Shown here: one piece after another, positions 1 to 44,977 of the stretch
How the letters are laid out: every line of letters starts with the position of its first letter
Position numbering within the stretch: the first letter of the stretch is position 1
Sequence record: OR062943.1
Source: Escherichia phage 241Ecol014PP
Strand: one strand, 5' to 3'
DNA length: 64,000 nucleotides
Notes under the pieces: generated by a model
What the model was told of the DNA's origin: nothing
Seen by the model: the letters and a program-made list of their open reading frames with translations, nothing else
Database searches by the model: none
Program-made: the position numbers and the translations under genes

Positions 1-477
1 TGGTATGGTAGCATTTTTGCGGCCCTGTTTACATTCAGTAATGTATGTATGACCCTTGTTGTGTGGGCGTTTAGACGTCTAGACGGTTGGAAGTCTACAG
101 GTCAATATCTAATCTATTGGCTGCTAACTATATCCCACACAAATAGTAAGAAATATGATTGTTATATGCGTAAACTGTAACTCATGTTATCAATCCCTGT
201 ATGTATCGCCAGTGGTGCGCATAATGGGTATTATGTTAAATTGCCCGTAATGATAACTATTCTCACAATGATAGGTATTCTCATTCACCCCACAAGATAG
301 GTTGCAAATGTTGTGCCACTGTGTGAACGGCCTAGCCTATTAATTTGCCTCACTGCCTTGATATTTGAGAATTGTTATAAGAATGAGAAGTATTCCCATT
401 TCGTCCGCCTGGCAGCACTCCAGTCGCTACGGCTCATGACAAGGCAGAACTGGACCTGTTCAGATATTTCTGGCTGA

Positions 478-1036
478 CTCTTCAGGTCTGTGTGGGAAAA
501 GCCAACCTCTCCGGCGGGGCAGGGGGTCATGACGGGAAAATTGCAGGTCAATTAAAAAATTTACGTGGTGTATGAAGCGCTCTTCAGGTAAGGCATATAT
601 TATGGGATGAAACCCTCTTCAGGCAATGATATTTGTGGGTGTGATATTTGCTGGAAAGCCAGATATGACGGGACTCCCGGCGGGGCAGGGGTAGTACAGA
701 CAGGGAAAATATGAGGATGTAGTTGGGGAAATTGATCAGACAGGTAGAGTATGGAATATGTTACAAGTATGTTAAATATGGAGGTTGAATATCTGTAGGA
801 TTTGTGTGTAAAATCAAAGACTTAAGGGGTGTTGTGGTATTTTCTATAAATAATTCAAGTTTAATAGGCAATATTTGTCTCTATCCGCTTTGTGTGGTAA
901 ACAGATTCAGATTAGATTGGTTTACAAGTGTATACATAATATACAAATTAAAGATACAAGAAACCCCCCTCCCCCTTCGGCTACCATTCACCTTTTCCTC
1001 TGACTGGTACTTAAACACTTATTCAGACTCTTCAGG
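478..1036. repeat. Dispersed 9-bp repeat CTCTTCAGG, 4 copies (478-486, 580-588, 615-623, 1028-1036) in ORF-poor region
   Basis: Direct reading; no ORF longer than 86 aa in 1-1300. Confidence 0.5.
505..715. repeat. Two copies of composite element CCGGCGGGGCAGGGG (511-525, 677-690) with ATGACGGGA (526-536, 663-673) in rearranged order
   Basis: Direct reading of both copies. Confidence 0.5.
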
Positions 1037-1386
1037 TTATCACCCATATATCATATGGCAGTGACTGGTGTCCTCCGGCCCCTCTTTCGTCACCCGTCCG
1101 CTTCGCCATGCTAATGCCATAGCCAATGGTTCGGTTGTTCACCCTGTTCACTCAGGTGTATCTCCATACCCCTTCAAACCGAAGAGAACAGAAAACCCGA
1201 ATTACTCGGTAAAAGAAAAGAGAAGAACTTAATTTTATCAGGATAGGCAAGAATGTCAAGGCATGACTGCTCACTAAACAAGCAAACAGTCATGTGTGGG
1301 AGGTAAGTGATTGTGGTGGTAGGAAATTTAGTTGAAAGATGTGTTATAGGTGCTTCCAGCACTTTAGCCGGGCAGCTAATTGTGTG

Positions 1387-2296: not shown

Positions 2297-2608
2297 CTAT
2301 ACCCATGAGGGCTTATCAAGGTTGGAGTAGCTGAAAGGTGTCAAAAGGTGACTGTCAAAATCCCTCAAACTATCCAAATCTTTCTCCTCGTCCTGACACC
2401 ATCTGTGCCTACATTTATTGTTGTAGTGCATAGAATGCATAGCGTTCTGCAATTTAACAGGCACAAGTGATTCAGGAGTAGATAGTATTGTTGGGTATGC
2501 CAGAACCACCTCAAACAGTGGAAACACATCGAAACTAAAGTCTACCTCTGCAGATGTTGATGGCATATAGGAGTATTTAGCCGCCTTTGTAGACATAGTC
2601 CACCTCAC
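2297..2608 (-). CDS. hypothetical protein
   Basis: ORF track; 4-nt overlap with next gene. Confidence 0.4.
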   Translation of the reverse strand: MRWTMSTKAAKYSYMPSTSAEVDFSFDVFPLFEVVLAYPTILSTPESLVPVKLQNAMHSMHYNNKCRHRWCQDEEKDLDSLRDFDSHLLTPFSYSNLDKPSWV

Positions 2609-2987: not shown

Positions 2988-3293
2988 TTATTCTACAGAG
3001 CGTTTGAACAGAATGTCTGCCTCAGACATGTGCTCAACCTCTTCTTCGATTTTAGCTCGACGTTTTTCAGCCTCATAGCGAATATCGAACTCGGTAGCCA
3101 CCAGAGATTTGATGAATTTAGGAGAATACAGATGATCCTGCTTCTCAACGAGAATGATATCTTTAATGGCATCTTTCAGATCTTTAATCTGAAGTTGGAG
3201 TTCCACCAGTTCTTCGATTGTTTTGCGAAGGCGATCACGCTCTGCAGTGTCAGAAGGAAGAGAGGTGAACAGTTCAACTTTAGATTTAGCCAT
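2988..3293 (-). CDS. hypothetical coiled-coil protein
   Basis: ORF track; charged heptad-like composition. Confidence 0.45.
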   Translation of the reverse strand: MAKSKVELFTSLPSDTAERDRLRKTIEELVELQLQIKDLKDAIKDIILVEKQDHLYSPKFIKSLVATEFDIRYEAEKRRAKIEEEVEHMSEADILFKRSVE

Positions 3294-4081: not shown

Positions 4082-4369
4082 TCATAGTGCCTCTAAGATT
4101 TCATATCCATCTGGTCGGAATACAAGCCACTCCGTGGCTCCGTTTGGTCGATACGCTTTATACAGAACAACCTGATCTCGGCACATGCACATAGCTACAT
4201 AGTTTTCATCCACACCTGCAGCCTGCATTGCAGCTTCTTCTCCGGCAACTGCTTTGCTTACAACCTCCTTGGTAGGCAGGTGTGCGATCAGCTCGTCACC
4301 ATCATTAATTCCAAAATGGCTGAGCTCCCCATTGGTATCTTTAATCTTAATCTTAACCAGATCTTTCAT
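4082..4369 (-). CDS. hypothetical protein
   Basis: ORF track; adjacent stop/start with next gene. Confidence 0.45.
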   Translation of the reverse strand: MKDLVKIKIKDTNGELSHFGINDGDELIAHLPTKEVVSKAVAGEEAAMQAAGVDENYVAMCMCRDQVVLYKAYRPNGATEWLVFRPDGYEILEAL

Positions 4370-4698
4370 TAGTTTTTCTCCAGGTTCAAAGGCCCTAAGA
4401 TTTCATATGCCAGATTAGAAGTTACCAGAGGATCTTCTGCATCTTTAGTATTATACCACCCGTGAATAACCAGAGTCCCACTTTGCTTCATGTCTAACTG
4501 GAACTGTTCTGCCGTTTCCTCATCCATCTCCAAGAGTTCCATAAGGTATTTGATGTTAGGAAGGTATGCAGCTGTTACAGTCCCCTCTACCAGACCTTCG
4601 GGCCAACCTACATCCGGATGACAAGCAGGAACCAGAGAGGTCAGCTTGATAGTGTATGCTTTTTCTGCACGAGCCTTCAGTAACGGGTCAATCTTCAT
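4369..4698 (-). CDS. hypothetical protein
   Basis: ORF track. Confidence 0.45.
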   Translation of the reverse strand: MKIDPLLKARAEKAYTIKLTSLVPACHPDVGWPEGLVEGTVTAAYLPNIKYLMELLEMDEETAEQFQLDMKQSGTLVIHGWYNTKDAEDPLVTSNLAYEILGPLNLEKN

Positions 4699-5048
4699 TA
4701 TTCGTCCTCCTCTTCGGTGCCTGCTTCCAGTAATAAGTTAAGAATATCTTCTGCACAAGGCTCATAGAACTCTTGGCCTTCATTATCGATGATTTTGTAG
4801 TCATCTCCACGAATAATCAGGGGATCACTCTCAAAATTATCGAGACCTTTAACAACGACAACACGATCGATTGCCATCATTGTAAGAACTTTATCGACAT
4901 TTTCCTCTGCTACACCATACTGCAGCAGAATGTCTTTGGTAGGAGGAACAGCATCCACCACAACTCCGTTGCCAAAACCTTCCGGAAGTTTAGCTAAAAT
5001 ATCTTCCGGAACCACATCCACATCAAAACCGGTAATTTCTACTTTCAT
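4698..5048 (-). CDS. hypothetical acidic protein
   Basis: ORF track. Confidence 0.45.
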   Translation of the reverse strand: MKVEITGFDVDVVPEDILAKLPEGFGNGVVVDAVPPTKDILLQYGVAEENVDKVLTMMAIDRVVVVKGLDNFESDPLIIRGDDYKIIDNEGQEFYEPCAEDILNLLLEAGTEEEDE

Positions 5049-5309
5049 TTACAGCACCTCTTCGTCAACTACTTCATAAAAATGGCCTGGGATTGCAATA
5101 GCGTTCTCACCTTCACCTACAAACACAGTTCCGTCAAGAATCAACATCATAAGAATTTCTGGAATATCCTCTTCCGGAACGTTGCCAAAACCTTTAATCA
5201 GCTCGTAGGTTGGAAGATTTACCTCTAAGATATCACCATCTTTAGAACGGAAATCAACACCGTCCTGAATCTCTGCCGTTTCAAGGTTTTTCAATTTAAT
5301 CTTCATCAA
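5049..5309 (-). CDS. hypothetical protein
   Basis: ORF track. Confidence 0.45.
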   Translation of the reverse strand: MMKIKLKNLETAEIQDGVDFRSKDGDILEVNLPTYELIKGFGNVPEEDIPEILMMLILDGTVFVGEGENAIAIPGHFYEVVDEEVL

Positions 5310-5385
5310 TCAGTCTCCTGTCTTGTTAAGATGAAGGTATTATTTCACACAGGGTTGGTGTTGTCAACACCTGTGTGCAAGAAAA

Positions 5386-5781
5386 TTACTGAAACAGTGC
5401 GGATAAATTACCTTCTGGTGGGAACTTATCTGCCAAAAACGGTGTTAACACAGTAGCCTTCTGAAGATCTGGGGTCCACTCGTTGTTCAGAACATCCCAG
5501 TAGTACGCAATATTGCTGTGTGGGTGCCGCATTACGAACTTTTTCCCTTCGTAGTCATCTGAAACCTCTACAGAAGAAATAACAACAGAATCTTCAAGGG
5601 TTTCTTCATAGAAAGATCCACCTTCAAATTTCCAACGAGATGCAAGAGCCCCTGCCTTGAACGCTGCAGATAACGGACTGTCGGCAAGAACATACATTTC
5701 TTGCACTCTGTCGCTGCGATCTTTGCTTCTTACGTTGTATACAGTATCTGAGCTATACTCAACACGGTATAGGCTTACCAT
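5386..5781 (-). CDS. hypothetical protein, paralog of 7593-8003
   Basis: Shared motif HPHSNIAYYWDVLNNEWTP vs HPDSRVKHYWNARTKTWTP. Confidence 0.5.
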   Translation of the reverse strand: MVSLYRVEYSSDTVYNVRSKDRSDRVQEMYVLADSPLSAAFKAGALASRWKFEGGSFYEETLEDSVVISSVEVSDDYEGKKFVMRHPHSNIAYYWDVLNNEWTPDLQKATVLTPFLADKFPPEGNLSALFQ

Positions 5782-6140
5782 TACCGCACCTCCTCAATAA
5801 CTTCCACATCTGAACCCACCACAAATGCAAAAGGACAGGTTTCATGAAAGACATCCGGATCGCCACCGAGCTTGCTAACAATTTCTCCACCACTAATAAA
5901 TACAAGCTCACCGATATTCATCAGGTTGCTGAAATAGTACCCATAATGATTAAAGAATGCAGCAGGGTCAGGTAGACTAGTAGCCTCAAGCACTACATCG
6001 GTTGAGGTTACTTTCTTATCATAACCTCTCGCCTTTTGAGATGCAAGATCTGCAGAATCCTCAGGAGACCGGAGATGCACAGGAATTGTTTCACCAATAA
6101 AGCGTACTTTCATATTATCACCCAACAACCATAGCTTCAA
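5781..6140 (-). CDS. hypothetical protein
   Basis: ORF track. Confidence 0.45.
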   Translation of the reverse strand: MKLWLLGDNMKVRFIGETIPVHLRSPEDSADLASQKARGYDKKVTSTDVVLEATSLPDPAAFFNHYGYYFSNLMNIGELVFISGGEIVSKLGGDPDVFHETCPFAFVVGSDVEVIEEVR

Positions 6141-6381
6141 AAGGAGTCATGAACGAATAAACGGCATCATCATCTGCTTCAGGGAATGCTCCCAAAGACT
6201 TCATGTCTGAGCCCTTGACAAATACAAGGTTTTGATCAAAAGCTTCTTGGGGGTCAATCCGATACATATTTCGTAGAATATCGCTTACCTCCTCATCAAG
6301 AGGTGAGTATGCTGTGCACGTTTTTCCGATCAAGCTTTGAGAATCAGGGTAGCCACCTGAAGTTTTAAAATAAACAATCAT
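6118..6381 (-). CDS. hypothetical protein
   Basis: ORF track. Confidence 0.4.
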   Translation of the reverse strand: MIVYFKTSGGYPDSQSLIGKTCTAYSPLDEEVSDILRNMYRIDPQEAFDQNLVFVKGSDMKSLGAFPEADDDAVYSFMTPFEAMVVG

Positions 6382-6472
6382 ATAGTATCACCTCTGGTAA
6401 GAGATTGGGATTCCTTTCCCATAAATAATTACAAATCTTCCTTAGCGAGGAAGTATGCTAATCCAAGCAGGA

Positions 6473-6742
6473 TTATTCCTCTACAATCTCATACACATCA
6501 GGAGTTACAATCAACTCTTCTCCGTTACCCGGTGCAACAAACACCACCAAACCTTCAGGTGTGTGCTTTTTAGCCATCTCGATAACATCTTCTCGCAGAG
6601 CTGGCTCCATCAGATCAAAACCTTCACCCAGGGCATCACGAACCACCTTCATATAGTCCACTGGTTGTGCTTCAACAATCATGCCTTCAACCAGTCCACA
6701 GTTTTTGTCTGCCAGCTCAGTTTTGAATAATTTAATTTTCAT
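6473..6742 (-). CDS. hypothetical protein
   Basis: ORF track. Confidence 0.45.
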   Translation of the reverse strand: MKIKLFKTELADKNCGLVEGMIVEAQPVDYMKVVRDALGEGFDLMEPALREDVIEMAKKHTPEGLVVFVAPGNGEELIVTPDVYEIVEE

Positions 6743-6879
6743 TTAGAGGTCTCCTCAATTATTTGATATTAATAGCCGTAACCTAACACATTAACTACAA
6801 CTGCGATTGCAAACATAATTTCAAAGCATGCAATCTCTACATTTGGGACTAATTTCTTAATCACGCCCATTGTAGCACC

Positions 6880-7197
6880 TCATTCTCCAAAGTCAATCTT
6901 TACTTTGCCTTTCCCCTTACCTTTCTTTCCACTACATTTAGCCAACTGACGTGCTGCAACATCTACCATACGGTCAGTTGCCTCGTAAGCATCACTGCCT
7001 TTAGCTTTGGCAATAACTTCTTTTCCAGAATTGTCAAAAATGAACGCCATAACTTCCTGGTGATCATTTTCAACTTTTACACTCACACGTGCATAGTTGG
7101 CAGAGGGGTGCAAACGCTCCAGCTTAGACATTTTGTGAGAAATGAAAGACACCATACCTTCAGTGATTTCTACGTTGCCAGTGATTTCAATTTGCAT
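6880..7197 (-). CDS. hpf: ribosome hibernation promoting factor / RaiA (S30EA) family homolog
   Basis: MQIEITGNVEITEG...KLE...VKVE...ARQLAK matches recalled E. coli HPF (MQLNITGNNVEITEA...ARQLTK); lysine/glycine-rich tail. Confidence 0.65.
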   Translation of the reverse strand: MQIEITGNVEITEGMVSFISHKMSKLERLHPSANYARVSVKVENDHQEVMAFIFDNSGKEVIAKAKGSDAYEATDRMVDVAARQLAKCSGKKGKGKGKVKIDFGE

Positions 7198-7249
7198 AAC
7201 GTGTTCCTTTTAAAGAAGAGAGAATAACAACCATCTCTCTTTGAAAACA

Positions 7250-7278
7250 ATAATACTATAGCTGAAGCGTTGTGTCAA
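7250..7278 (-). promoter_or_regulatory. sigma70-like promoter (minus strand): TTGACA-17-TATTAT upstream of hpf-like gene
   Basis: Reverse complement of 7250-7278 reads TTGACAcaacgcttcagctatagTATTAT. Confidence 0.45.
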
Positions 7279-7284
7279 CAGTTT

Positions 7285-7575
7285 TTACAGGTTGTTGTCA
7301 ATAGTATCTAAAATAGCTACAGCAAGATCTGCCATTTTTCGAACATACTCTGCAAACTCAACAGGATCCTTGATCAAAGAATTCACAGGGTCGTACCCTA
7401 GAGCGTTCAAAATGGCTGCAGCATCTACAACCTTCTCATCATTTGCGAAGATCTCTCCATCAAACTTGTAGGTCCATTTTGAGTCAATCTTGGCAGGGAA
7501 GGATTGGTCAACACTTGTTACACCATCGTCTTTAAACTCTCCTGCGTTATCAATATTCAGAACTAAATCCATCAT
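7285..7575 (-). CDS. hypothetical protein
   Basis: ORF track. Confidence 0.45.
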   Translation of the reverse strand: MMDLVLNIDNAGEFKDDGVTSVDQSFPAKIDSKWTYKFDGEIFANDEKVVDAAAILNALGYDPVNSLIKDPVEFAEYVRKMADLAVAILDTIDNNL

Positions 7576-7592
7576 AGTGGCACCTCACTGTT

Positions 7593-8003
7593 TCAGTTTA
7601 GCTTTTCTTCAACAACCCCATAACTTGGGGCAGAGTCAAGAGCTTTCTGGTTTAAAAGTGGTGTAGCAGAATCTGCAAACGGTGTCCAAGTTTTTGTTCT
7701 GGCATTCCAGTAATGCTTCACTCTAGAATCTGGGTGCACTATAACAAAAACTTTTTCACTTGTCAACACATTAATTTCTTCCACACCTTTGCTGATAATT
7801 TCTCCGTCATATCCTCCGGTCTGGTATCCTTCGTACCAGGTTCTTGCATAGGCATAGCCAGCCTGCCAGCATGCAGCCTCCTCCGAGGTGGAGACTACGT
7901 AGAAGTCTTTCTCAAATTCTGGGATACGCCCTTGCTTTACGCTCCAAGTTCCGCGAATTTTCATTGTAACTTTGAACAGTTTATTTTTCACAACGGTTAC
8001 CAA
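7593..8003 (-). CDS. hypothetical protein, paralog of 5386-5781
   Basis: Shared C-terminal motif with 5386-5781. Confidence 0.5.
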   Translation of the reverse strand: MVTVVKNKLFKVTMKIRGTWSVKQGRIPEFEKDFYVVSTSEEAACWQAGYAYARTWYEGYQTGGYDGEIISKGVEEINVLTSEKVFVIVHPDSRVKHYWNARTKTWTPFADSATPLLNQKALDSAPSYGVVEEKLN

Positions 8004-8258
8004 TCACAGCTCTACAATATCTGCATCTGACCCTGCCCCAAAGGCATAATAGGACTCTTCCCCGAAATAATATTCCGGTGCACCAGCAGCGATCAGGTCT
8101 GATCCCAAGATAAACACCACGTTGTGGCCTACATAACTGTGATGTTGCCGCACAGGATCATCCCACGGCAACCCTTCAAAGTATACCGCAGGAACGACCT
8201 TTCCATTCAGGAAGGATTGTCCCAAGTAGACGTTAGAATCAAGAATTTTAACCTTCAT
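8004..8258 (-). CDS. hypothetical protein, MKVK-LD / DLIAAGA family member 1
   Basis: MKVKILDSNVYLGQ...GSDLIAAGAPE. Confidence 0.5.
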   Translation of the reverse strand: MKVKILDSNVYLGQSFLNGKVVPAVYFEGLPWDDPVRQHHSYVGHNVVFILGSDLIAAGAPEYYFGEESYYAFGAGSDADIVEL

Positions 8259-8475
8259 GATCGTCCTCCACTATCTCTACATCCTCACCTAGGGCAAAGT
8301 TGTAGGTCCACTGACTGTCAAAGCATTCCTGAGATGCACCAGCGGCAATAAGATCTGCCCCTTTTATTTTTAAAAGGTCAGGGTAATATTCGTTAGGGAC
8401 AGCAGTAAACACTTTCCCTACTAAAGGCTCCTGACCAATATAGAAGCTTGAATCTAAAACTTTAACTTTCATCAA
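8248..8475 (-). CDS. hypothetical protein, MKVK-LD / DLIAAGA family member 2 (tandem duplicate)
   Basis: MMKVKVLDSSFYIGQ...GADLIAAGAS. Confidence 0.5.
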   Translation of the reverse strand: MMKVKVLDSSFYIGQEPLVGKVFTAVPNEYYPDLLKIKGADLIAAGASQECFDSQWTYNFALGEDVEIVEDDHEG

Positions 8476-8759
8476 CGGTCTCCATCAGGTGGTTGTGGGA
8501 CGTAAACACTGTTACGAATATCGTCCGCAGTATAGTAATAAGTGTCTCCAACCCTGTCTCGGGCTGCAATGTACTCTGCTATACCAATAAGTGCCATTGA
8601 TTTGGTGGCGTATCTTCCCAACTCGTTAGCTCCCCAGTAGAATTTAGACCAGTAGGGAATAAGACCGAACAAATATACCTTTTGACGAACTTCCCAGTAA
8701 GTGCCTTTTCCGACAAGTTTAAACTCTACTTCACTACTGTTAATCTTTTTCATTATCAA
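8472..8759 (-). CDS. hypothetical protein
   Basis: ORF track. Confidence 0.45.
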   Translation of the reverse strand: MIMKKINSSEVEFKLVGKGTYWEVRQKVYLFGLIPYWSKFYWGANELGRYATKSMALIGIAEYIAARDRVGDTYYYTADDIRNSVYVPQPPDGDR

Positions 8760-9052
8760 TCTCCCTCTACCGTGGTCGGATTGTCAGTAAGAAATTGAGC
8801 ATTGGCTGGAGGCACGCCTGACATTTTCCACACAACCATAAGTTTGTAACCAGGCACTCTATTAAGTGCAGATCGAGTAGAGTTTGTGCACGTATACTTT
8901 CGCTTTCCAAACCCGTTCTCCATCATAATCCAGTACCCAGTATCTTTGTCACCAGGTATCGGTAGACCACCTTCATCAACCCACTGAATGGACCACGGCA
9001 CGATGGCTACAGCTTTATATTTAAACTTTTTAAACCACTCAAAAAGTTTCAT
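8756..9052 (-). CDS. hypothetical protein
   Basis: ORF track. Confidence 0.45.
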   Translation of the reverse strand: MKLFEWFKKFKYKAVAIVPWSIQWVDEGGLPIPGDKDTGYWIMMENGFGKRKYTCTNSTRSALNRVPGYKLMVVWKMSGVPPANAQFLTDNPTTVEGD

Positions 9053-9147
9053 AATTCAGCCTCGCATAGACATAATCACTATAAACAGGCAAACAATGAA
9101 TCCGAATGCCACGCCACCCATAAACGTTAATATTGATGCAATCATAG

Positions 9148-9333
9148 TCAATCAGCCTCGCTTGGCAACTCTTCTACCTTAACATGCCGAAAAGTGTTAC
9201 CGTAATGGTTGATCCATGACATCAGCTCGCTTTCTTGCTCTTCCTCTGGGATGAACTCTCGAATGCTGACAAGTTTTAAGAAAACCCAATCACAATCTGC
9301 ACCCATTCTACCAGACAGGCAATAGTGCTTCAT
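9148..9333 (-). CDS. hypothetical small protein
   Basis: ORF track. Confidence 0.35.
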   Translation of the reverse strand: MKHYCLSGRMGADCDWVFLKLVSIREFIPEEEQESELMSWINHYGNTFRHVKVEELPSEAD

Positions 9334-9351
9334 AAAACCCTCCCACCTGGT

Positions 9352-9546
9352 TTAGAATATTGCTTCTTCCATTGCACCTGAGAGCAACAAAGAGGTGATC
9401 TGGCTAACATTCATCTCAGACTCTACTTCCTCCCCTTTGAAAGGTTCGCGGCAGAATAGGACTGTTTCAGGACTTTTACTTCGAACAATATAATACAAAT
9501 CATTCAATGTGTTGTAGTAATAAGTGTTAAAACGTAAGTTTTTCAT
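9352..9546 (-). CDS. hypothetical small protein
   Basis: ORF track. Confidence 0.35.
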   Translation of the reverse strand: MKNLRFNTYYYNTLNDLYYIVRSKSPETVLFCREPFKGEEVESEMNVSQITSLLLSGAMEEAIF

Positions 9547-9830
9547 TTTCTAGTCCTCTTCTTAGATTTTTGGGGAGAAACGCTTTCTGCAATACGAGAC
9601 AGACGTTCTTCTGAAGCCTTACCTACTCCAGGTTTTTTGAGTGGATTATCTTTATGACCACAATCCAACTGGATATTGGATACCTCTCCAACTTTGTAAG
9701 TCAATTCTAGCAAAAGGTTGTCGTCCTTGTCAAATGTTTTTACGATAAATTTTTTATCGTTCTCCTGAACTTCATATCTGGTACCTGCAGTATACAGCAT
9801 GGTGCCATCAGCATAGGATATCCAGATCAT
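9543..9830 (-). CDS. hypothetical protein with basic C-terminus
   Basis: ORF track. Confidence 0.4.
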   Translation of the reverse strand: MIWISYADGTMLYTAGTRYEVQENDKKFIVKTFDKDDNLLLELTYKVGEVSNIQLDCGHKDNPLKKPGVGKASEERLSRIAESVSPQKSKKRTRK

Positions 9831-10174
9831 TGAGCCTCCTTTTGCTGCAACAGCATTAACTCTTTGTTAGAGATCTTTACTGCTGTTTTTATTGTTCCAT
9901 CTTCACGAAACCACGACCAGAACTCTACAGTGTCACCACTATCAAGTAAAGCATGCCCATGGTAAAAATCTTTGTCCTTAGACAGTTTCTCATCTATATC
10001 TGCATCAACACATTCGTGATCCATAGCATTTTGCCTGAACGCATCGGTTATGCCAATGCACGCCTTGCTCTCAAGACTGGTATATCCGATATCTTTTAAT
10101 TCAGTTTCCCAAGTCCAGTACCCTATAAAAGCTAAAACAGCTACCCACAGTAATAACGTTTTAATCTTTGGCAT
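9827..10174 (-). CDS. hypothetical protein with N-terminal signal/TM segment
   Basis: MPKIKTLLLWVAVLAFIGYWTW hydrophobic N-terminus. Confidence 0.45.
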   Translation of the reverse strand: MPKIKTLLLWVAVLAFIGYWTWETELKDIGYTSLESKACIGITDAFRQNAMDHECVDADIDEKLSKDKDFYHGHALLDSGDTVEFWSWFREDGTIKTAVKISNKELMLLQQKEAQ

Positions 10175-10236
10175 TCTCTCTACCCCTTTCTTAGTTTATT
10201 TCACTATGGCACATCCTTTGTGCCATATCTCAACTA

Positions 10237-10707
10237 CTACTTAAATAGTAGTTCAAAATAGTGCAAAATTAACAGAAGTTGAACTACACCTAGTGCAACG
10301 GCAAGTATGTTAATCTTAGAATCGAAAAACTTCTTAACTTTTACTCTAAAAGGTTCCTTAATGTCCTTTACGATCCTATCTATAGATGACCTCATATCTC
10401 TGATTACCATCCTGAACATTAAAGACGGATGCTCCCCCATCTCTGTAACGGAATCGAAAACATACTCTCTTCGGTCATAAGGGCCGCCAGCTCTGCGTAT
10501 TAACCTCTCCACAGAGACCTCGAACGTCACACCTGTAACGTAATCATCTATAACAAGTCGTGACGGGTCTTTACCTTTACTATCAAGAGGTATCAAAGTT
10601 ATCTTTCCAGATTTTGTTAAAATTTCCCCTTTTTCAAGCAAGGTGTACCAATGCTCTCTGCCAAGACTGTTGAGGCACGTTTTTACATATTTAACAAACA
10701 TCGTCAC
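10237..10707 (-). CDS. hypothetical protein with C-terminal hydrophobic segment
   Basis: ORF track; ILAVALGVVQLLLILHYF tail. Confidence 0.45.
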   Translation of the reverse strand: MTMFVKYVKTCLNSLGREHWYTLLEKGEILTKSGKITLIPLDSKGKDPSRLVIDDYVTGVTFEVSVERLIRRAGGPYDRREYVFDSVTEMGEHPSLMFRMVIRDMRSSIDRIVKDIKEPFRVKVKKFFDSKINILAVALGVVQLLLILHYFELLFK

Positions 10708-10907
10708 CCCTCATCGCACGTCTGATATAACCACTCTATAAAATCTTGATACCATTCGCCCTCTGAGCGCTCCGTGGGCCAATAATCTTCACCCTCTCGT
10801 GCATTAAAATCTGAGTATTCAACTTTCCACTCCTTTACCAGCTCGTGGAGAAGGTTTTCAGCCTGCTCTAAAGATTTATTTTTTACCATTGCTGTCTCCT
10901 TTTTCAA
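10704..10907 (-). CDS. hypothetical small protein
   Basis: ORF track. Confidence 0.4.
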   Translation of the reverse strand: MKKETAMVKNKSLEQAENLLHELVKEWKVEYSDFNAREGEDYWPTERSEGEWYQDFIEWLYQTCDEG

Positions 10908-11108
10908 GATAGTTATACATCAGAACTGCACCACCTAAGATGGCTACCAGTAACAATACCCCAGATAGCATCTCAGTAAACATGGCTTGAAACACTGGAA
11001 GGCCTCCCTAAATTAACGCACCATTTTAAATACATGCTCTTTTCCCATAAAGGTGCCTGGCTAAGATCTGCGTAGAACGCAATCTCTTTAAGAAGAGTAT
11101 AAACAGTT

Positions 11109-11345
11109 TTAGGTGCGGTCTCCATCCCTACCCTCCTTTTTCTCCTTACGGATATTCTTGTAGTAATCAACCAGGCACATTATCACGATGAAGATAACAA
11201 CAGGCCAAAAAGGTGCAGCAGTGATGATGGTGATAAAATCATCAAACTTCACCCTTCGTCTGGACACGATGCATACACCTGTCAAGAATACCGCTGTTAT
11301 AACGGATATTACCAAGTAACCTATTAGCACAACATTTATACTCAT
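11109..11345 (-). CDS. small integral membrane protein (two hydrophobic helices)
   Basis: VVLIGYLVISVITAVFLTGVCIV and AAPFWPVVIFIVIMCLV segments. Confidence 0.4.
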   Translation of the reverse strand: MSINVVLIGYLVISVITAVFLTGVCIVSRRRVKFDDFITIITAAPFWPVVIFIVIMCLVDYYKNIRKEKKEGRDGDRT

Positions 11346-11375
11346 TAGCCCTCCCTTTGTAGGTTAAATTGTATA

Positions 11376-11909
11376 CTACAGATGGTTGCTTATGGTGTCA
11401 AGAAAATTGTCCCGTTCTTTCTTGGAGTTTTCACGGGTGTAGCTGAAAAACATGTCTAGAATAACCTTATTGATATACTCCAGCTCCTCTGTGTTCAGGT
11501 ACTTAGCAGGATCTACAATGACATCCCAAGTCTCATACAGACCGCACTCATGATACCCCCAACGCTGCTCAATTGTCAAGCTGAGCGGCAAATCTTTACC
11601 GTCACAAACAACCTTCCATCTACAAATGTTGGTATCTGGTCGTACCTGTGCACGGTACACCTGCACAAAATCCAATTTGAATTTGAGGTACTCGTCATAC
11701 AATTTAAGCACAAAGCTCTCGATTTGTGGAGACACTTTTGCAGCAAACTGTGCGTATTTGTACTTGCACTGGATGATCTTTCTGCGTTTTGCAGTTAAAT
11801 TTTTTGCCGCCAGTTGTTCTTCAGTGTATCTCCATCTACGATCAACAAACGCAACAGGGTCTTTGTCCCCATAGAGGTCTTCCCAGTTAATCAGAAGCAT
11901 ACTTGTCAC
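11376..11909 (-). CDS. hypothetical protein
   Basis: ORF track; overlapping plus ORFs judged spurious. Confidence 0.5.
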   Translation of the reverse strand: MTSMLLINWEDLYGDKDPVAFVDRRWRYTEEQLAAKNLTAKRRKIIQCKYKYAQFAAKVSPQIESFVLKLYDEYLKFKLDFVQVYRAQVRPDTNICRWKVVCDGKDLPLSLTIEQRWGYHECGLYETWDVIVDPAKYLNTEELEYINKVILDMFFSYTRENSKKERDNFLDTISNHL

Positions 11910-12139
11910 TCCTCCACAACTTCAAGGCCTTTGCCGCCTCGTTCTGGTAGATTACTTAAAGACAGGTAATACGTATAGTCAGAAGAGATCCTGCCAGACT
12001 CTGCACCTGCAGCTAATAAATCTTTTCCCTTAACCATGACAACATTATCGTTTGCAGATAGCCGTTTTGCTTCCACAATTTTACCAACACAGTCAACCAA
12101 GGAAGGGTACCCTAAATCTGTAAGAAATTTAACTTTCAT
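11906..12139 (-). CDS. hypothetical protein, MKVK-LD / DLIAAGA family member 3
   Basis: MKVKFLTDLGY...GKDLLAAGAES. Confidence 0.5.
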   Translation of the reverse strand: MKVKFLTDLGYPSLVDCVGKIVEAKRLSANDNVVMVKGKDLLAAGAESGRISSDYTYYLSLSNLPERGGKGLEVVEE

Positions 12140-12178
12140 GCTACCTCCTGCTTCTACCGTCCCTGGTAAGATAAATTA

Positions 12179-12577
12179 TTACTGAACAGAGCGCGGAGCT
12201 GGGAAGGATAACTCTTCTAAAGAGAAGATTTCATTTCCCACAATCCATGTTGCCGGATCATCTGGGTTGACTGGGTAGATAATCATCACCTCGTCCGTGT
12301 TACATACCCGCTTTTTACCTGTGGAGTTATCAGCAACCAGCATACGCGGTTCTTCAGAAATGCACAGGTAGCCTCCTCGGCCCACTGTTCCTTCCACAGG
12401 GTCTTGTCCTTTGATCACGATGATTATCTTTTCACCTGCGGCAATATTACCTTGCACACTTACCGTTTGACCAACCTTAGACGTACCAATCTGGGTTACT
12501 TCAAACATTACATCCCGAATTACTGTTGCATAATCGCCAGACACTTTCTTACCTTCTTTAGTGATCTCAATCTTCAT
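12179..12577 (-). CDS. hypothetical protein
   Basis: ORF track. Confidence 0.5.
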   Translation of the reverse strand: MKIEITKEGKKVSGDYATVIRDVMFEVTQIGTSKVGQTVSVQGNIAAGEKIIIVIKGQDPVEGTVGRGGYLCISEEPRMLVADNSTGKKRVCNTDEVMIIYPVNPDDPATWIVGNEIFSLEELSFPAPRSVQ

Positions 12578-12813: not shown

Positions 12814-12850
12814 AGATGACCCCCCCTCTTGTTGAAAACAAAATACACCA

Positions 12851-13165
12851 CTACCAAGTCACTGTCAAGTAGGCAACCGTGTTATTTTTCTCCGGAGAGA
12901 TGCCAACAACATCCACCTGCAGACCTCCTGCCCTCAAATCCCCAACGATGTGTGGGAAGTAGTCTGAGAGGTGTGATGGGAGATTTATCGAAAATCCGCA
13001 TCCCAGAAAGCCTGCTAACGCTTTATTTTGTATCTCCCCTACAATCGCATCATAGATAGAGTTAAGCTCGTCAGGAAGCGTTACAGGACGTTTTAGCGCT
13101 AACTGGTGTAATTTGTCCTTAGCACTCATTTTCATTTCAGGTCTACCTCTGGGGGTGCCAACCAC
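12851..13165 (-). CDS. hypothetical protein
   Basis: ORF track. Confidence 0.4.
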   Translation of the reverse strand: MVGTPRGRPEMKMSAKDKLHQLALKRPVTLPDELNSIYDAIVGEIQNKALAGFLGCGFSINLPSHLSDYFPHIVGDLRAGGLQVDVVGISPEKNNTVAYLTVTW

Positions 13166-44125: not shown

Positions 44126-44200
44126 GCCCTGTTAGCTTAGTGGATAAAGCAGCGGCCTTCTAAGCCGTTGACACTGGTTCGAGTCCAGTACGGGGTGCCA
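44126..44200 (+). tRNA. tRNA-Arg (anticodon TCT), CCA encoded
   Basis: Manual cloverleaf: acceptor GCCCTGT/ACGGGGT (two G-U), D GCTT/AAGC, anticodon loop CTTCTAA. Confidence 0.75.
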
Positions 44201-44330
44201 AGTTCTTTTTAATGTAGCTTACTTTAGCAGAGTAAATCTTCGGCAAGTGGCGGTAACCACTTTACCGATACCTCATAGTTAGTGGTGAGAACACTAGCTA
44301 TTTTAAAAAGAATTTAAATATTAGTATTTA

Positions 44331-44418
44331 GGTGAGTTAATTCCGTAGGGGTAGCGGGGCAGACTGTAAATCTGTTATCATTGCGATTCGGGTGGTTCGA
44401 CTCCATCACTCACCACCA
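44331..44418 (+). tRNA. tRNA-Tyr (anticodon GTA), class II, CCA encoded
   Basis: Acceptor GGTGAGT/ACTCACC; anticodon arm GCAGA-CTGTAAA-TCTGT as in recalled E. coli tRNA-Tyr. Confidence 0.8.
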
Positions 44419-44532
44419 AATTTATATTTTTAAATGCATAAATCATACAGATAATGGCATTGATATTTATCGTCGTTTATACTAGTCACTAACTGCTCGA
44501 AAATCAGTGTCATTATCAGTATTGTTTATAAA

Positions 44533-44623
44533 AGAGGGTAGGGAGCAATGGTGCTCAAGCGGTCTTGAAAACCGTCCCGTTGAGGATGACTCGATGATGG
44601 TTCGATTCCATTATCCTCTGCCA
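44533..44623 (+). tRNA. tRNA-Ser (anticodon TGA), class II, CCA encoded
   Basis: Acceptor AGAGGGT/ATCCTCT; anticodon loop CTTGAAA; long variable arm. Confidence 0.7.
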
Positions 44624-44721
44624 TATTGTTGACCTTGTAATTAAGCGAAAGCCGGAAGCAGAACCGGATTATCAAATGTTACAGTCGTCATCGCCGACTA
44701 GCAACATGGTCAACATACTGA

Positions 44722-44820
44722 GCTAGGTAAGCCCTTTGGCAAGGGCGAGGATTTTTAATCCTGAAAATAGACGAGGTAGTCGTTGAATACATAGGTGGTT
44801 CGATTCCACCGCCTAGCACC
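44722..44820 (+). tRNA. atypical ~97-nt tRNA-like element; anticodon unassigned (possibly TTT)
   Basis: Perfect acceptor GCTAGGT/GCCTAGC and T-arm GGTGG-TTCGATT-CCACC, but 65 nt between acceptor and T-arm. Confidence 0.4.
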
Positions 44821-44825
44821 TTTTT

Positions 44826-44901
44826 GCTGATGTAGCACAATTGGTAGTGCAATTGATTTGTAATCAATAGGTTGCAGGTTCAAGTCCTGCCATCAGCACC
44901 A
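44826..44901 (+). tRNA. tRNA-Thr (anticodon TGT), CCA encoded
   Basis: Full canonical 76-nt cloverleaf; anticodon loop TTTGTAA. Confidence 0.85.
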
Positions 44902-44902
44902 T

Positions 44903-44977
44903 GGCCCTGTAGCTGGAAGGTTCAAGCAAGCGACTCATAATCGCCAGACGGTGGTTCAATTCCACCCAGGGCCACCA
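44903..44977 (+). tRNA. tRNA-Met or tRNA-Ile2 (anticodon CAT), elongator type, CCA encoded
   Basis: Acceptor GGCCCTG/CAGGGCC paired at 1-72; anticodon loop CTCATAA. Confidence 0.8.

Follow-up and report, generated by a model that had tools for sequence, protein, structure and literature searches.

Three families of small minus-strand genes

The 64,000-nucleotide (nt) stretch of Escherichia phage 241Ecol014PP DNA analyzed here (sequence record OR062943.1; called the window below) carries, between positions 4,082 and 12,577, an array of small genes in which a first-pass annotation, made from the letters alone, had noticed families of related proteins. The minus strand is the coding one between about 40 kb and about 1.4 kb of the window, and this 8.5-kb region holds about 30 small minus-strand genes, all annotated as hypothetical except for a homologue of the ribosome hibernation factor HPF (6880-7197). 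Escherichia phage MaxTheCat, APECc02, and about 120 further records of Vequintavirus (rV5-like phages) match the region at 97% identity. The open reading frames (ORFs) named by the first-pass annotation, designated here by their lower coordinate, were all found on the minus strand where it had placed them, and they match annotated coding sequences of related phages. The intergenic gaps contain near-consensus sigma-70 promoters. Of the 17 best matches, 16 fall on the coding strand; two promoters coincide with P144 and P150 as annotated in rV5, and a further one is placed at 12840-12868.

Along the direction of transcription the genes follow one another as 8248, 8004, 7593, 7285, the HPF homologue, an ORF of 33 amino acids (aa), 6473, 6118, 5781, 5386, a promoter, and then 5049, 4698, 4369, and 4082. 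We assigned these genes to three families, A (five members: 8248, 8004, 6118, 5781, and 11906), B (5386 and 7593), and C (five members: 6473 and the four genes from 5049 to 4082), which together make up 12 of 17 consecutive genes (11 in the run, plus 11906; Table 1). Two A-A-B cassettes are evident in this order, 8248-8004-7593 and 6118-5781-5386. Genes 6118, 5781, and 5386 form one operon, joined by a gap of 4 nt and a TAATG stop-start overlap; such overlaps or direct abutment also link all four clustered C genes. As the first-pass annotation had reported, 8004 and 8248 are tandem and overlapping, and the overlap is the 11-nt sequence ATGAAGGTTAA. The family proteins are soluble, with neither a membrane nor a periplasmic signal, and 10 of the 12 have isoelectric points of 4.0 to 4.8, the exceptions being 11906 (5.4) and 7593 (7.8).

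The paralogous pairs first proposed proved to be real. In all-vs-all BLASTP and Smith-Waterman comparisons, the latter scored against 300 shuffles with Gumbel P values corrected for 351 pairs, they stood far above shuffled controls. For 8004 and 8248 the score was 129 (z 22.4, corrected P 1e-10; BLASTP identity 42%, near full length), for 5386 and 7593 it was 111 (z 16.1, corrected P 1.5e-7; 28% identity over 112 aa), and for 8248 and 11906 it was 92 (z 15.7, corrected P 6.5e-7; 34% identity, near full length). These three pairs survived the 351-pair correction with six or more orders of magnitude to spare, so that their scores were clearly distinguishable from those of shuffles; the remaining core pair, 8004 and 11906, gave z 7.2 and a corrected P of 0.02. 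When profiles of the individual genes were compared with each other (hhalign), 12 of the 13 best among 351 gene pairs lay within A or within C.

Family A extends beyond the three core genes 8004, 8248, and 11906. A hidden Markov model (HMM) built from the core retrieved 6118 (E 9e-6) and 5781 (E 3e-4) among 657 ORFs of the window, and profiles made from divergent orthologues gave hhalign probabilities of 78% to 94% for 8004 or 8248 against 5781 or 6118; by PHROG profile, 5781 matched its own phrog_13661 only. The two motifs by which the core genes had first been grouped, MKVK..LD and G.DL(I/L)AAGA, turned out to be conserved columns of this wider family. An AlphaFold2 model of A, computed from a 23-sequence alignment, was confident (predicted local distance difference test score, pLDDT, 92; predicted template modeling score 0.79) and had five strands and one short helix, with the insertions in 8004, 5781, and 6118 located in the loop between strands 2 and 3. 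The model of an 87-aa Shigella phage CM1 protein in BFVD, taken as the 6118 orthologue, superposed on it with a template modeling (TM) score of 0.81. The predicted fold is an SH3-like five-strand beta-barrel that can be superposed on SH3, KOW, or PsaE domains. Family A thus shares the fold class of the SH3-like small beta-barrels (SH3, KOW/Spt5, PsaE, and the integrase C-terminal domain), at sequence identities of 4% to 25%, and sequence profiles of SH3, KOW, and PsaE did not match it. Because the likeness is one of fold class only, no ligand or function can be transferred to A.

Relatives of A are scarce and widely placed. Homologues of 11906, 41% to 50% identical, were found by tblastn in mEp021-like temperate phages, and an exhaustive profile search of 1.8 billion representatives yielded only 43 relatives at E of 1e-3 or below. 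Most of these are stand-alone proteins of 65 to 87 aa; one has three tandem copies, and in a few the domain is N-terminal in a longer protein. The partner domains of the larger proteins (P0049, P0034, P0040, and P0043) are all of unknown function, so that the fusions suggest no function either. In Morganella and other prophages the distant members lie in the early-left operon, between the recombination genes and int and beside NinX and an MT-A70 methylase, and in mEp021 they lie between Q and the lysis genes.

Family C was recognized by the pattern MKIKL..., G..G...A.LP, a helical stretch, and ...YEI(V/L)E. When each member in turn was omitted from the profile, it ranked first among about 650 ORFs in five of five cases, with E values from 5e-6 to 0.05. 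Profile comparison gave hhalign probabilities of 55% to 94% among 4698, 4369, 5049, and 4082, and linked 6473 weakly (13% to 17%). The AlphaFold2 model of 5049 (pLDDT 81) repeats the strand order of A but contains two inserted helices. A single superfamily of A and C was nevertheless unsupported: within the 40 best per-gene profile matches listed, no A-C pair exceeded 2.2%, other hhalign comparisons gave 14% in one case and 53% for insertion-bearing A against C, and the C model did not retrieve the best-scoring A-family models in BFVD. Distant homologues of C were not detected by tblastn in the phage collection; the sole lead to such relatives is a Foldseek match of the C model to an 86-aa protein of Vibrio phage Vc1. 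Two further genes were considered and set aside. Gene 12179-12577 (MKIEIT...) shares a 39-nt repeat with 4369 but ranked only 35 in the leave-one-out test for C, and 1387-1602 (MKIEIFGG) matches none of the families.

Family B is a two-copy orphan. Both copies are present in the Vequintavirus records among the matches listed, at 95% to 99% aa identity, and no homologue outside the Vequintavirus lineage was found in phage records (tblastn, E of 10 or below), metagenome proteins, a viral-contig scan, or a word-indexed search. The likeness to a Listeria phage A118 protein noted in the rV5 record was not reproduced. Divergent syntenic relatives have an orthologue of 5386 that is 39% to 40% identical, and the place of 7593 is held there by an unrelated gene of 96 to 106 aa. 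The C-terminal HP.S...YW...W block by which the two B genes had been paired is kept in the 39%-identical relative, whereas the final TP, first counted as part of it, is lost. For 7593, a start at GTG 7991 or ATG 7964 is likelier than one at TTG 8003.

Searches of Pfam, NCBIfam, PADLOC, and the PDB (by sequence) gave nothing significant for the family members, and no family shows a catalytic signature. Window proteins match their PHROG profiles end to end (E 1e-32 to 1e-75), and all of these PHROGs are labeled as of unknown function: phrog_5009 for the A core, phrog_13920 and phrog_13661 for A with insertions, phrog_7379, which unites both B genes, and phrog_12359, phrog_12155, phrog_12457, phrog_12794, and phrog_11868 for C. 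Since PHROGs places the three core A genes in one family and the two B genes in another, bare paralogy was already implicit in databases; since it splits A over three families and C over five, it does not reveal the ten-gene extent of A and C or the cassettes. The rV5 genome paper does not mention the paralogy of these genes. What was already known is therefore the sequences, the two groupings held in databases, and accessory-gene islands as a kind of feature; new here are the complete rosters of A and C (five genes each), a predicted fold for A, the arrangement in cassettes, a recombination chimera described below, and the link to transposon phenotypes that had not been exploited.

Table 1. 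Family members and associated features of the array. Log2 fold changes (log2FC) are those of the Bas54 orthologue on a uropathogenic clinical isolate, each with q reported as 0.
Feature	Coordinates	Strand	Evidence	Bas54 orthologue
Family A, 77 aa, dispersed copy	11906..12139	-	phrog_5009 E 4e-36; Smith-Waterman z 15.7 with 8248	
Family A, 74 aa, MKVKVLDS..., SH3-like barrel (predicted), first gene of cassette 2	8248..8472	-	phrog_5009 E 8e-38	
Family A, 84 aa, LPxxDP loop insertion	8004..8258	-	phrog_5009 E 6e-32; overlaps 8248 by 11 nt	
Family B, 123 aa from ATG 7964 (132-136 aa from upstream GTG/TTG), last gene of cassette 2	7593..7964	-	phrog_7379 E 1e-73	bas54_0157, log2FC -2.14
Sigma-70 promoter, TTGACA-17-TATTAT	7250..7278	-	near-consensus; precedes HPF gene and downstream genes; P144 in rV5	
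HPF/RaiA ribosome hibernation factor homologue, non-member, between cassettes	6880..7197	-	Pfam PF02482 E 9e-13, above gathering score	
Family C, 89 aa, dispersed, weakest by profile comparison	6473..6742	-	leave-one-out rank 1, E 4e-4; hhalign 13-17% with 5049 and 4082	
Family A, 87 aa, helical loop insertion, not named by first-pass annotation	6118..6381	-	core HMM E 9e-6; phrog_5009 E 1e-4; hhalign 93% with 8004 profile	bas54_0152, log2FC -7.16
Family A, 110 aa, long loop insertion (LPDP...), not named by first-pass annotation	5781..6113	-	core HMM E 3e-4; Smith-Waterman P 2e-5 with 8004; hhalign 94% with 8004, 84% with 8248; stop overlaps start of 5386 (TAATG)	bas54_0151, log2FC -6.17
Family B, 131 aa, last gene of cassette 1	5386..5781	-	phrog_7379 E 2e-66; Smith-Waterman z 16 with 7593	bas54_0150, log2FC -6.77
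Sigma-70 promoter, TTGACA-17-TGnAATAAT	5339..5367	-	near-consensus; precedes family C operon; P150 in rV5	
Family C, 85 aa, first gene of four-gene translationally coupled operon	5049..5306	-	leave-one-out rank 1, E 0.002; hhalign 93.5% with 4698; AlphaFold2 pLDDT 81	
Family C, 116 aa, acidic C-terminal tail	4698..5048	-	leave-one-out E 3e-5; hhalign 94% with 4369, 93.5% with 5049	
Family C, 109 aa, weakest by single-sequence tests	4369..4698	-	leave-one-out rank 1, E 0.05; hhalign 94.4% with 4698	
Family C, 95 aa	4082..4369	-	leave-one-out E 5e-6; hhalign 55% with 4698	
Anti-defence gene (orthologue), 1.5 kb beyond the region of the families	2297..2596	-	phrog_12072; unrelated in sequence to A, B, and C	bas54_0140 (99% aa identity)

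Duplication, recombination, and selection

Paralogous expansion of small genes was thus confirmed in a non-structural arm of a lytic phage that is rich in sigma-70 promoters, and several observations bear on how it arose. The presence of two A-A-B cassettes suggests that at least one duplication was segmental, and the second A gene of each cassette (8004 and 5781) shares an LPxxDP loop insertion, which is consistent with segmental duplication. The matrix of scores was ambiguous on this point, since 8004 is closest to 8248 yet has its loop insertion in common with 5781; the closeness of 8004 to 8248 could be due to recombination between the two. Such recombination is illustrated by L009, a 133-kb relative in which the tandem 8248/8004 pair is replaced by one chimeric gene of 70 aa (3001-3213). 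The N-terminal two thirds of this gene derive from 8248 (nt 1-145) and the C-terminal third from 8004 (nt 142-213), with the crossover in the stretch coding for DLIAAGA, indicating unequal recombination between tandem A paralogues. Plasticity was also seen elsewhere in the array: 8756-10707, with the six genes that separate the orthologues of 8472-8753 and 10704-10889, is absent from Bas54 (L020); contig L010 is deleted differently within that stretch; and in protein P0013, 7593 is fused to the C-terminus of 7285. Logan contigs L025-L028, at 30% to 90% aa identity, carry the whole array in the same order, but their 5386-like gene is separated from the C cluster by an additional Phage_P22_Y8K6 gene.

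The first-pass annotation had supposed that these genes are under diversifying selection, a claim that our results do not support. The ratio of nonsynonymous to synonymous substitution rates (dN/dS), was calculated gene-wide in five comparisons within the genus; in the three most diverged of these it was 0.02 to 0.2 for every family member, compared with 0.01 to 0.07 for ClpP, PhoH, and a methyltransferase in the same three genomes. We concluded from the substitution patterns that the family members are genuine genes and that purifying selection acts on them. Median aa identity to distant syntenic relatives was 49% for family members and 67% for other genes of the array (P 0.005); the evidence for fast evolution is relative only, since it consists of this comparison. 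The identity range of the anti-defence gene 2297 (34% to 44%) was reached by 4698 only, with 5386 close to it at 39% to 40%.

It had also been remarked that many ORFs of the region begin with MK(V/I)(K/E)(I/V). The enrichment is genuine, as 7 of the region's 25 genes start with M-K-[VI]-[KER]-[IVLF], against 1 of 85 in the rest of the window (Fisher P 1e-4), but it is mostly a result of paralogy: six of the seven carriers belong to A or C, so that these N-termini largely represent a shared first beta-strand and provide no independent signal. Gene duplication thus explains both the shared MKVK N-termini and the appearance of an arsenal, and positive selection is not needed.

Host-specific requirement and possible roles

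Transposon insertion sequencing (Tn-seq) of a closely related phage provides phenotypes for these genes. A saturated transposon library of Bas54 (phage MaxBurger) has been constructed and analyzed by HIDEN-SEQ (bioRxiv 10.1101/2025.11.20.689424), and the Bas54 proteins are 95% to 100% identical in aa sequence to their window orthologues. On K-12, all 12 family orthologues were scored as non-essential or, for bas54_0151-0153, as 'Intermediate', with an insertion saturation of 0.69 to 0.73 (bioRxiv 10.1101/2025.11.20.689424). On a uropathogenic clinical isolate, in contrast, insertions in four of them, 6118, 5781, 5386, and, to a lesser degree, 7593, were strongly depleted (Table 1). Insertions in bas54_0146-0149, 0158, 0159, and 0166 were neutral, and the genes neighboring the depleted four had values near 0 (bioRxiv 10.1101/2025.11.20.689424). 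The same resampling analysis had bas54_0063 and bas54_0140 as its top hits, and these were validated against the predicted DS-28 system of isolate CFE311 (bioRxiv 10.1101/2025.11.20.689424). The bas54_0140 gene resembles the depleted family genes in lying in the same array, in being small and of unknown fold and non-essential on K-12, and in being depleted in the same comparison; it differs in having no sequence similarity to A, B, or C and in having been matched to DS-28 by knockout and plaque assay, unlike any family member.

Taking these observations together, we think it somewhat better than an even chance that the small duplicated genes constitute a host-specific accessory array of divergent binder proteins used for counter-defence or takeover. 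The region would then be the distal, accessory part of a long leftward Vequintavirus transcription unit, which host-type sigma-70 promoters would cut into short operons. Within it, local duplication followed by divergence would have given rise to three families of single-domain proteins, all small and soluble and most of them acidic: A, in five copies, presumably an SH3-like beta-barrel that has a loop insertion in some copies; B, a two-copy lineage orphan; and C, in five copies, probably a small alpha/beta domain. Stoichiometric binding is the likeliest mode of action, because there is no enzymatic signature and because the predicted fold of A, the family whose fold was compared with solved structures, is typical of protein- or nucleic-acid-binding modules. 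Each paralogue may have a separate target or partner, and the family proteins may neutralize or redirect strain-variable host factors, among which defence systems are the most probable. We infer that the B proteins, possibly with their upstream A partners, are the best counter-defence candidates, in that counter-defence would best accommodate a host-specific need that covers both B copies, and perhaps the neighboring A genes too, beside a validated anti-defence gene.

A bolder proposal, which we regard as possible but rather doubtful, is that the A-A-B cassette is a new multi-protein counter-defence module, in which B, helped by its A partners, neutralizes a defence of uropathogenic E. coli for which no phage inhibitor has been matched, and in which the duplicate cassette and the other A and C copies are specificity variants for further targets. 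If this is so, the targets could reveal new inhibitors and new defence systems. Close parallels are the 'moron' slots of temperate phages and the anti-defence or accessory islands of lytic phages (e.g., bioRxiv 10.1101/2023.04.06.535777), where small genes that are dispensable and diverge fast likewise stand in series and have promoters of their own; the array here differs from them in consisting mostly of three internally duplicated families rather than unrelated single genes and in having an order that is conserved genus-wide.

Several results weigh against a counter-defence array. The core A genes (8004, 8248, and 11906) and the four clustered C genes gave no phenotype on the strains tested, and the orthologue of 6473 was depleted (log2FC -2.78) but not significantly. 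None of the family members has been paired with a defence system or a host target, and the main text of the preprint is silent on these genes; the 'arsenal' of host-takeover or anti-defence functions that was first suggested is plausible and has Tn-seq backing for four genes. Because 5781 and 5386 are translationally coupled, a polar effect on 5386 could account for the depletion of 5781 and 6118. The strain in which depletion occurred is itself uncertain and inferred, because resampling sheets S6 and S7 (Extended Data Table 8: K-12 vs CFE303 and K-12 vs CFE311) carry identical numbers in the copy consulted, one of them probably being a pasted duplicate. The SH3-like fold of A is generic and says nothing specific about function, and gene-wide dN/dS shows no sign of positive selection. 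Finally, the designation of the genes as early depends on the promoters, as we found no time-resolved transcriptome in the literature.

The explanations that compete with a counter-defence array differ considerably in how well they account for these results. That the similarities are due to chance or composition, or that the ORFs are not genes, is suggested only by their small size and by the failure of any domain database to give a function; z values of 15 to 22 against shuffles, dN/dS far below 1, synteny kept down to 30% to 60% aa identity, the confident A model, and the Tn-seq phenotypes make it extremely improbable. The strongest competitor, although we would still assign it clearly less than an even chance, holds that only family B matters on the clinical strain (5386, and more weakly 7593), that the depletion of 6118 and 5781 is a polar artefact, and that A and C are dispensable passengers. 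It draws on the fact that 6118, 5781, and 5386 share an operon in which the only promoter lies downstream of 5386, and on the neutrality of the core A and four clustered C genes in the screen. Insertions in 0158 and 0159, upstream of 0157, were however neutral, which argues against general polarity, and the authors reported little of it; moreover, 0151 and 0152 had lower saturation on K-12 than 0150, implying some effect of their own, and all A and C genes are under purifying selection.

A role in host physiology has somewhat less to recommend it and seems to us unlikely: the proteins would be general takeover factors that tune translation, transcription, or metabolism alongside HPF, and the clinical phenotype would reflect physiology rather than immunity. 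An HPF/RaiA homologue does lie between the cassettes, genes for PhoH, ClpP, and nucleotide metabolism are in the same transcription unit as the families, and the reduced saturation of 0151-0153 on K-12 hints at a mild general role. Yet strong depletion on one strain is the signature by which the same screen found bona fide anti-defence genes, the HPF gene has no phenotype, and the distant A homologues occupy moron or accessory slots of temperate phages. Those same slots in temperate phages and prophages would also suit a function in competition between phages, such as superinfection exclusion or anti-satellite activity, instead of one directed at chromosomal host immunity, and clinical isolates differ mainly in prophages and satellites. 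We consider such a function improbable, because A, B, and C are soluble, mostly acidic proteins without a membrane or periplasmic signal and because the Tn-seq phenotype concerns what productive infection requires and not the protection of an infected cell.

The practical consequence of this analysis is that an 8-kb run of 'hypothetical proteins' resolves into three defined families, one (A) with a confident fold model and another (C) with a usable one, and into a short list of genes, 5386, 7593, 5781, and 6118, whose host-specific requirement is visible in public Tn-seq data but was not followed up there. The rV5-like phages are common candidates for therapy and biocontrol, and about two thirds of their genes are without a function. 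If the family proteins are inhibitors of strain-specific immunity, they would have a bearing on host range in clinical E. coli and could lead to the matching defence systems.

Neighboring genes and other features of the window

The HPF/RaiA homologue between the cassettes has its own near-consensus sigma-70 promoter, and its orthologue was non-essential and neutral in the Bas54 Tn-seq data. Further upstream in the array, gene 10237-10707 (minus strand) is annotated differently from record to record, as a virion structural protein, an HNH homing endonuclease, or a hypothetical protein. Its orthologue in rV5, gp133, was a predominant protein in virion mass spectrometry, though the gene lies within the accessory array. 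A structural role for the products of the region in general was rejected, since gp133 is the only one of them named among the virion proteins in the text of that paper.

At the left end, window positions 1-1386 are the edge of a non-coding region of about 2 kb found in rV5-like phages. That region tolerated no insertions in the Bas54 transposon library and so may have an essential function, though a non-coding one. At 2958-2983, between 2988-3293 and 2605-2931, lies a strong GC-rich hairpin flanked by T-runs on either side, which makes it terminator-like in both directions. On the plus strand, 44126-44977 holds a tRNA cluster (Arg, Ser, Thr, and Met) in which ARAGORN made an odd call, a tRNA with a four-base anticodon at 44722-44820; an additional tRNA at 44331-44415 was detected by Rfam and is missing from the ARAGORN list. 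Among the database records matching the array are 18 GenBank entries of the MG0656xx series labeled 'Campylobacter phage', of which the eight listed are about 95% to 97% identical to it, and the Campylobacter jejuni host label of these records looks doubtful.

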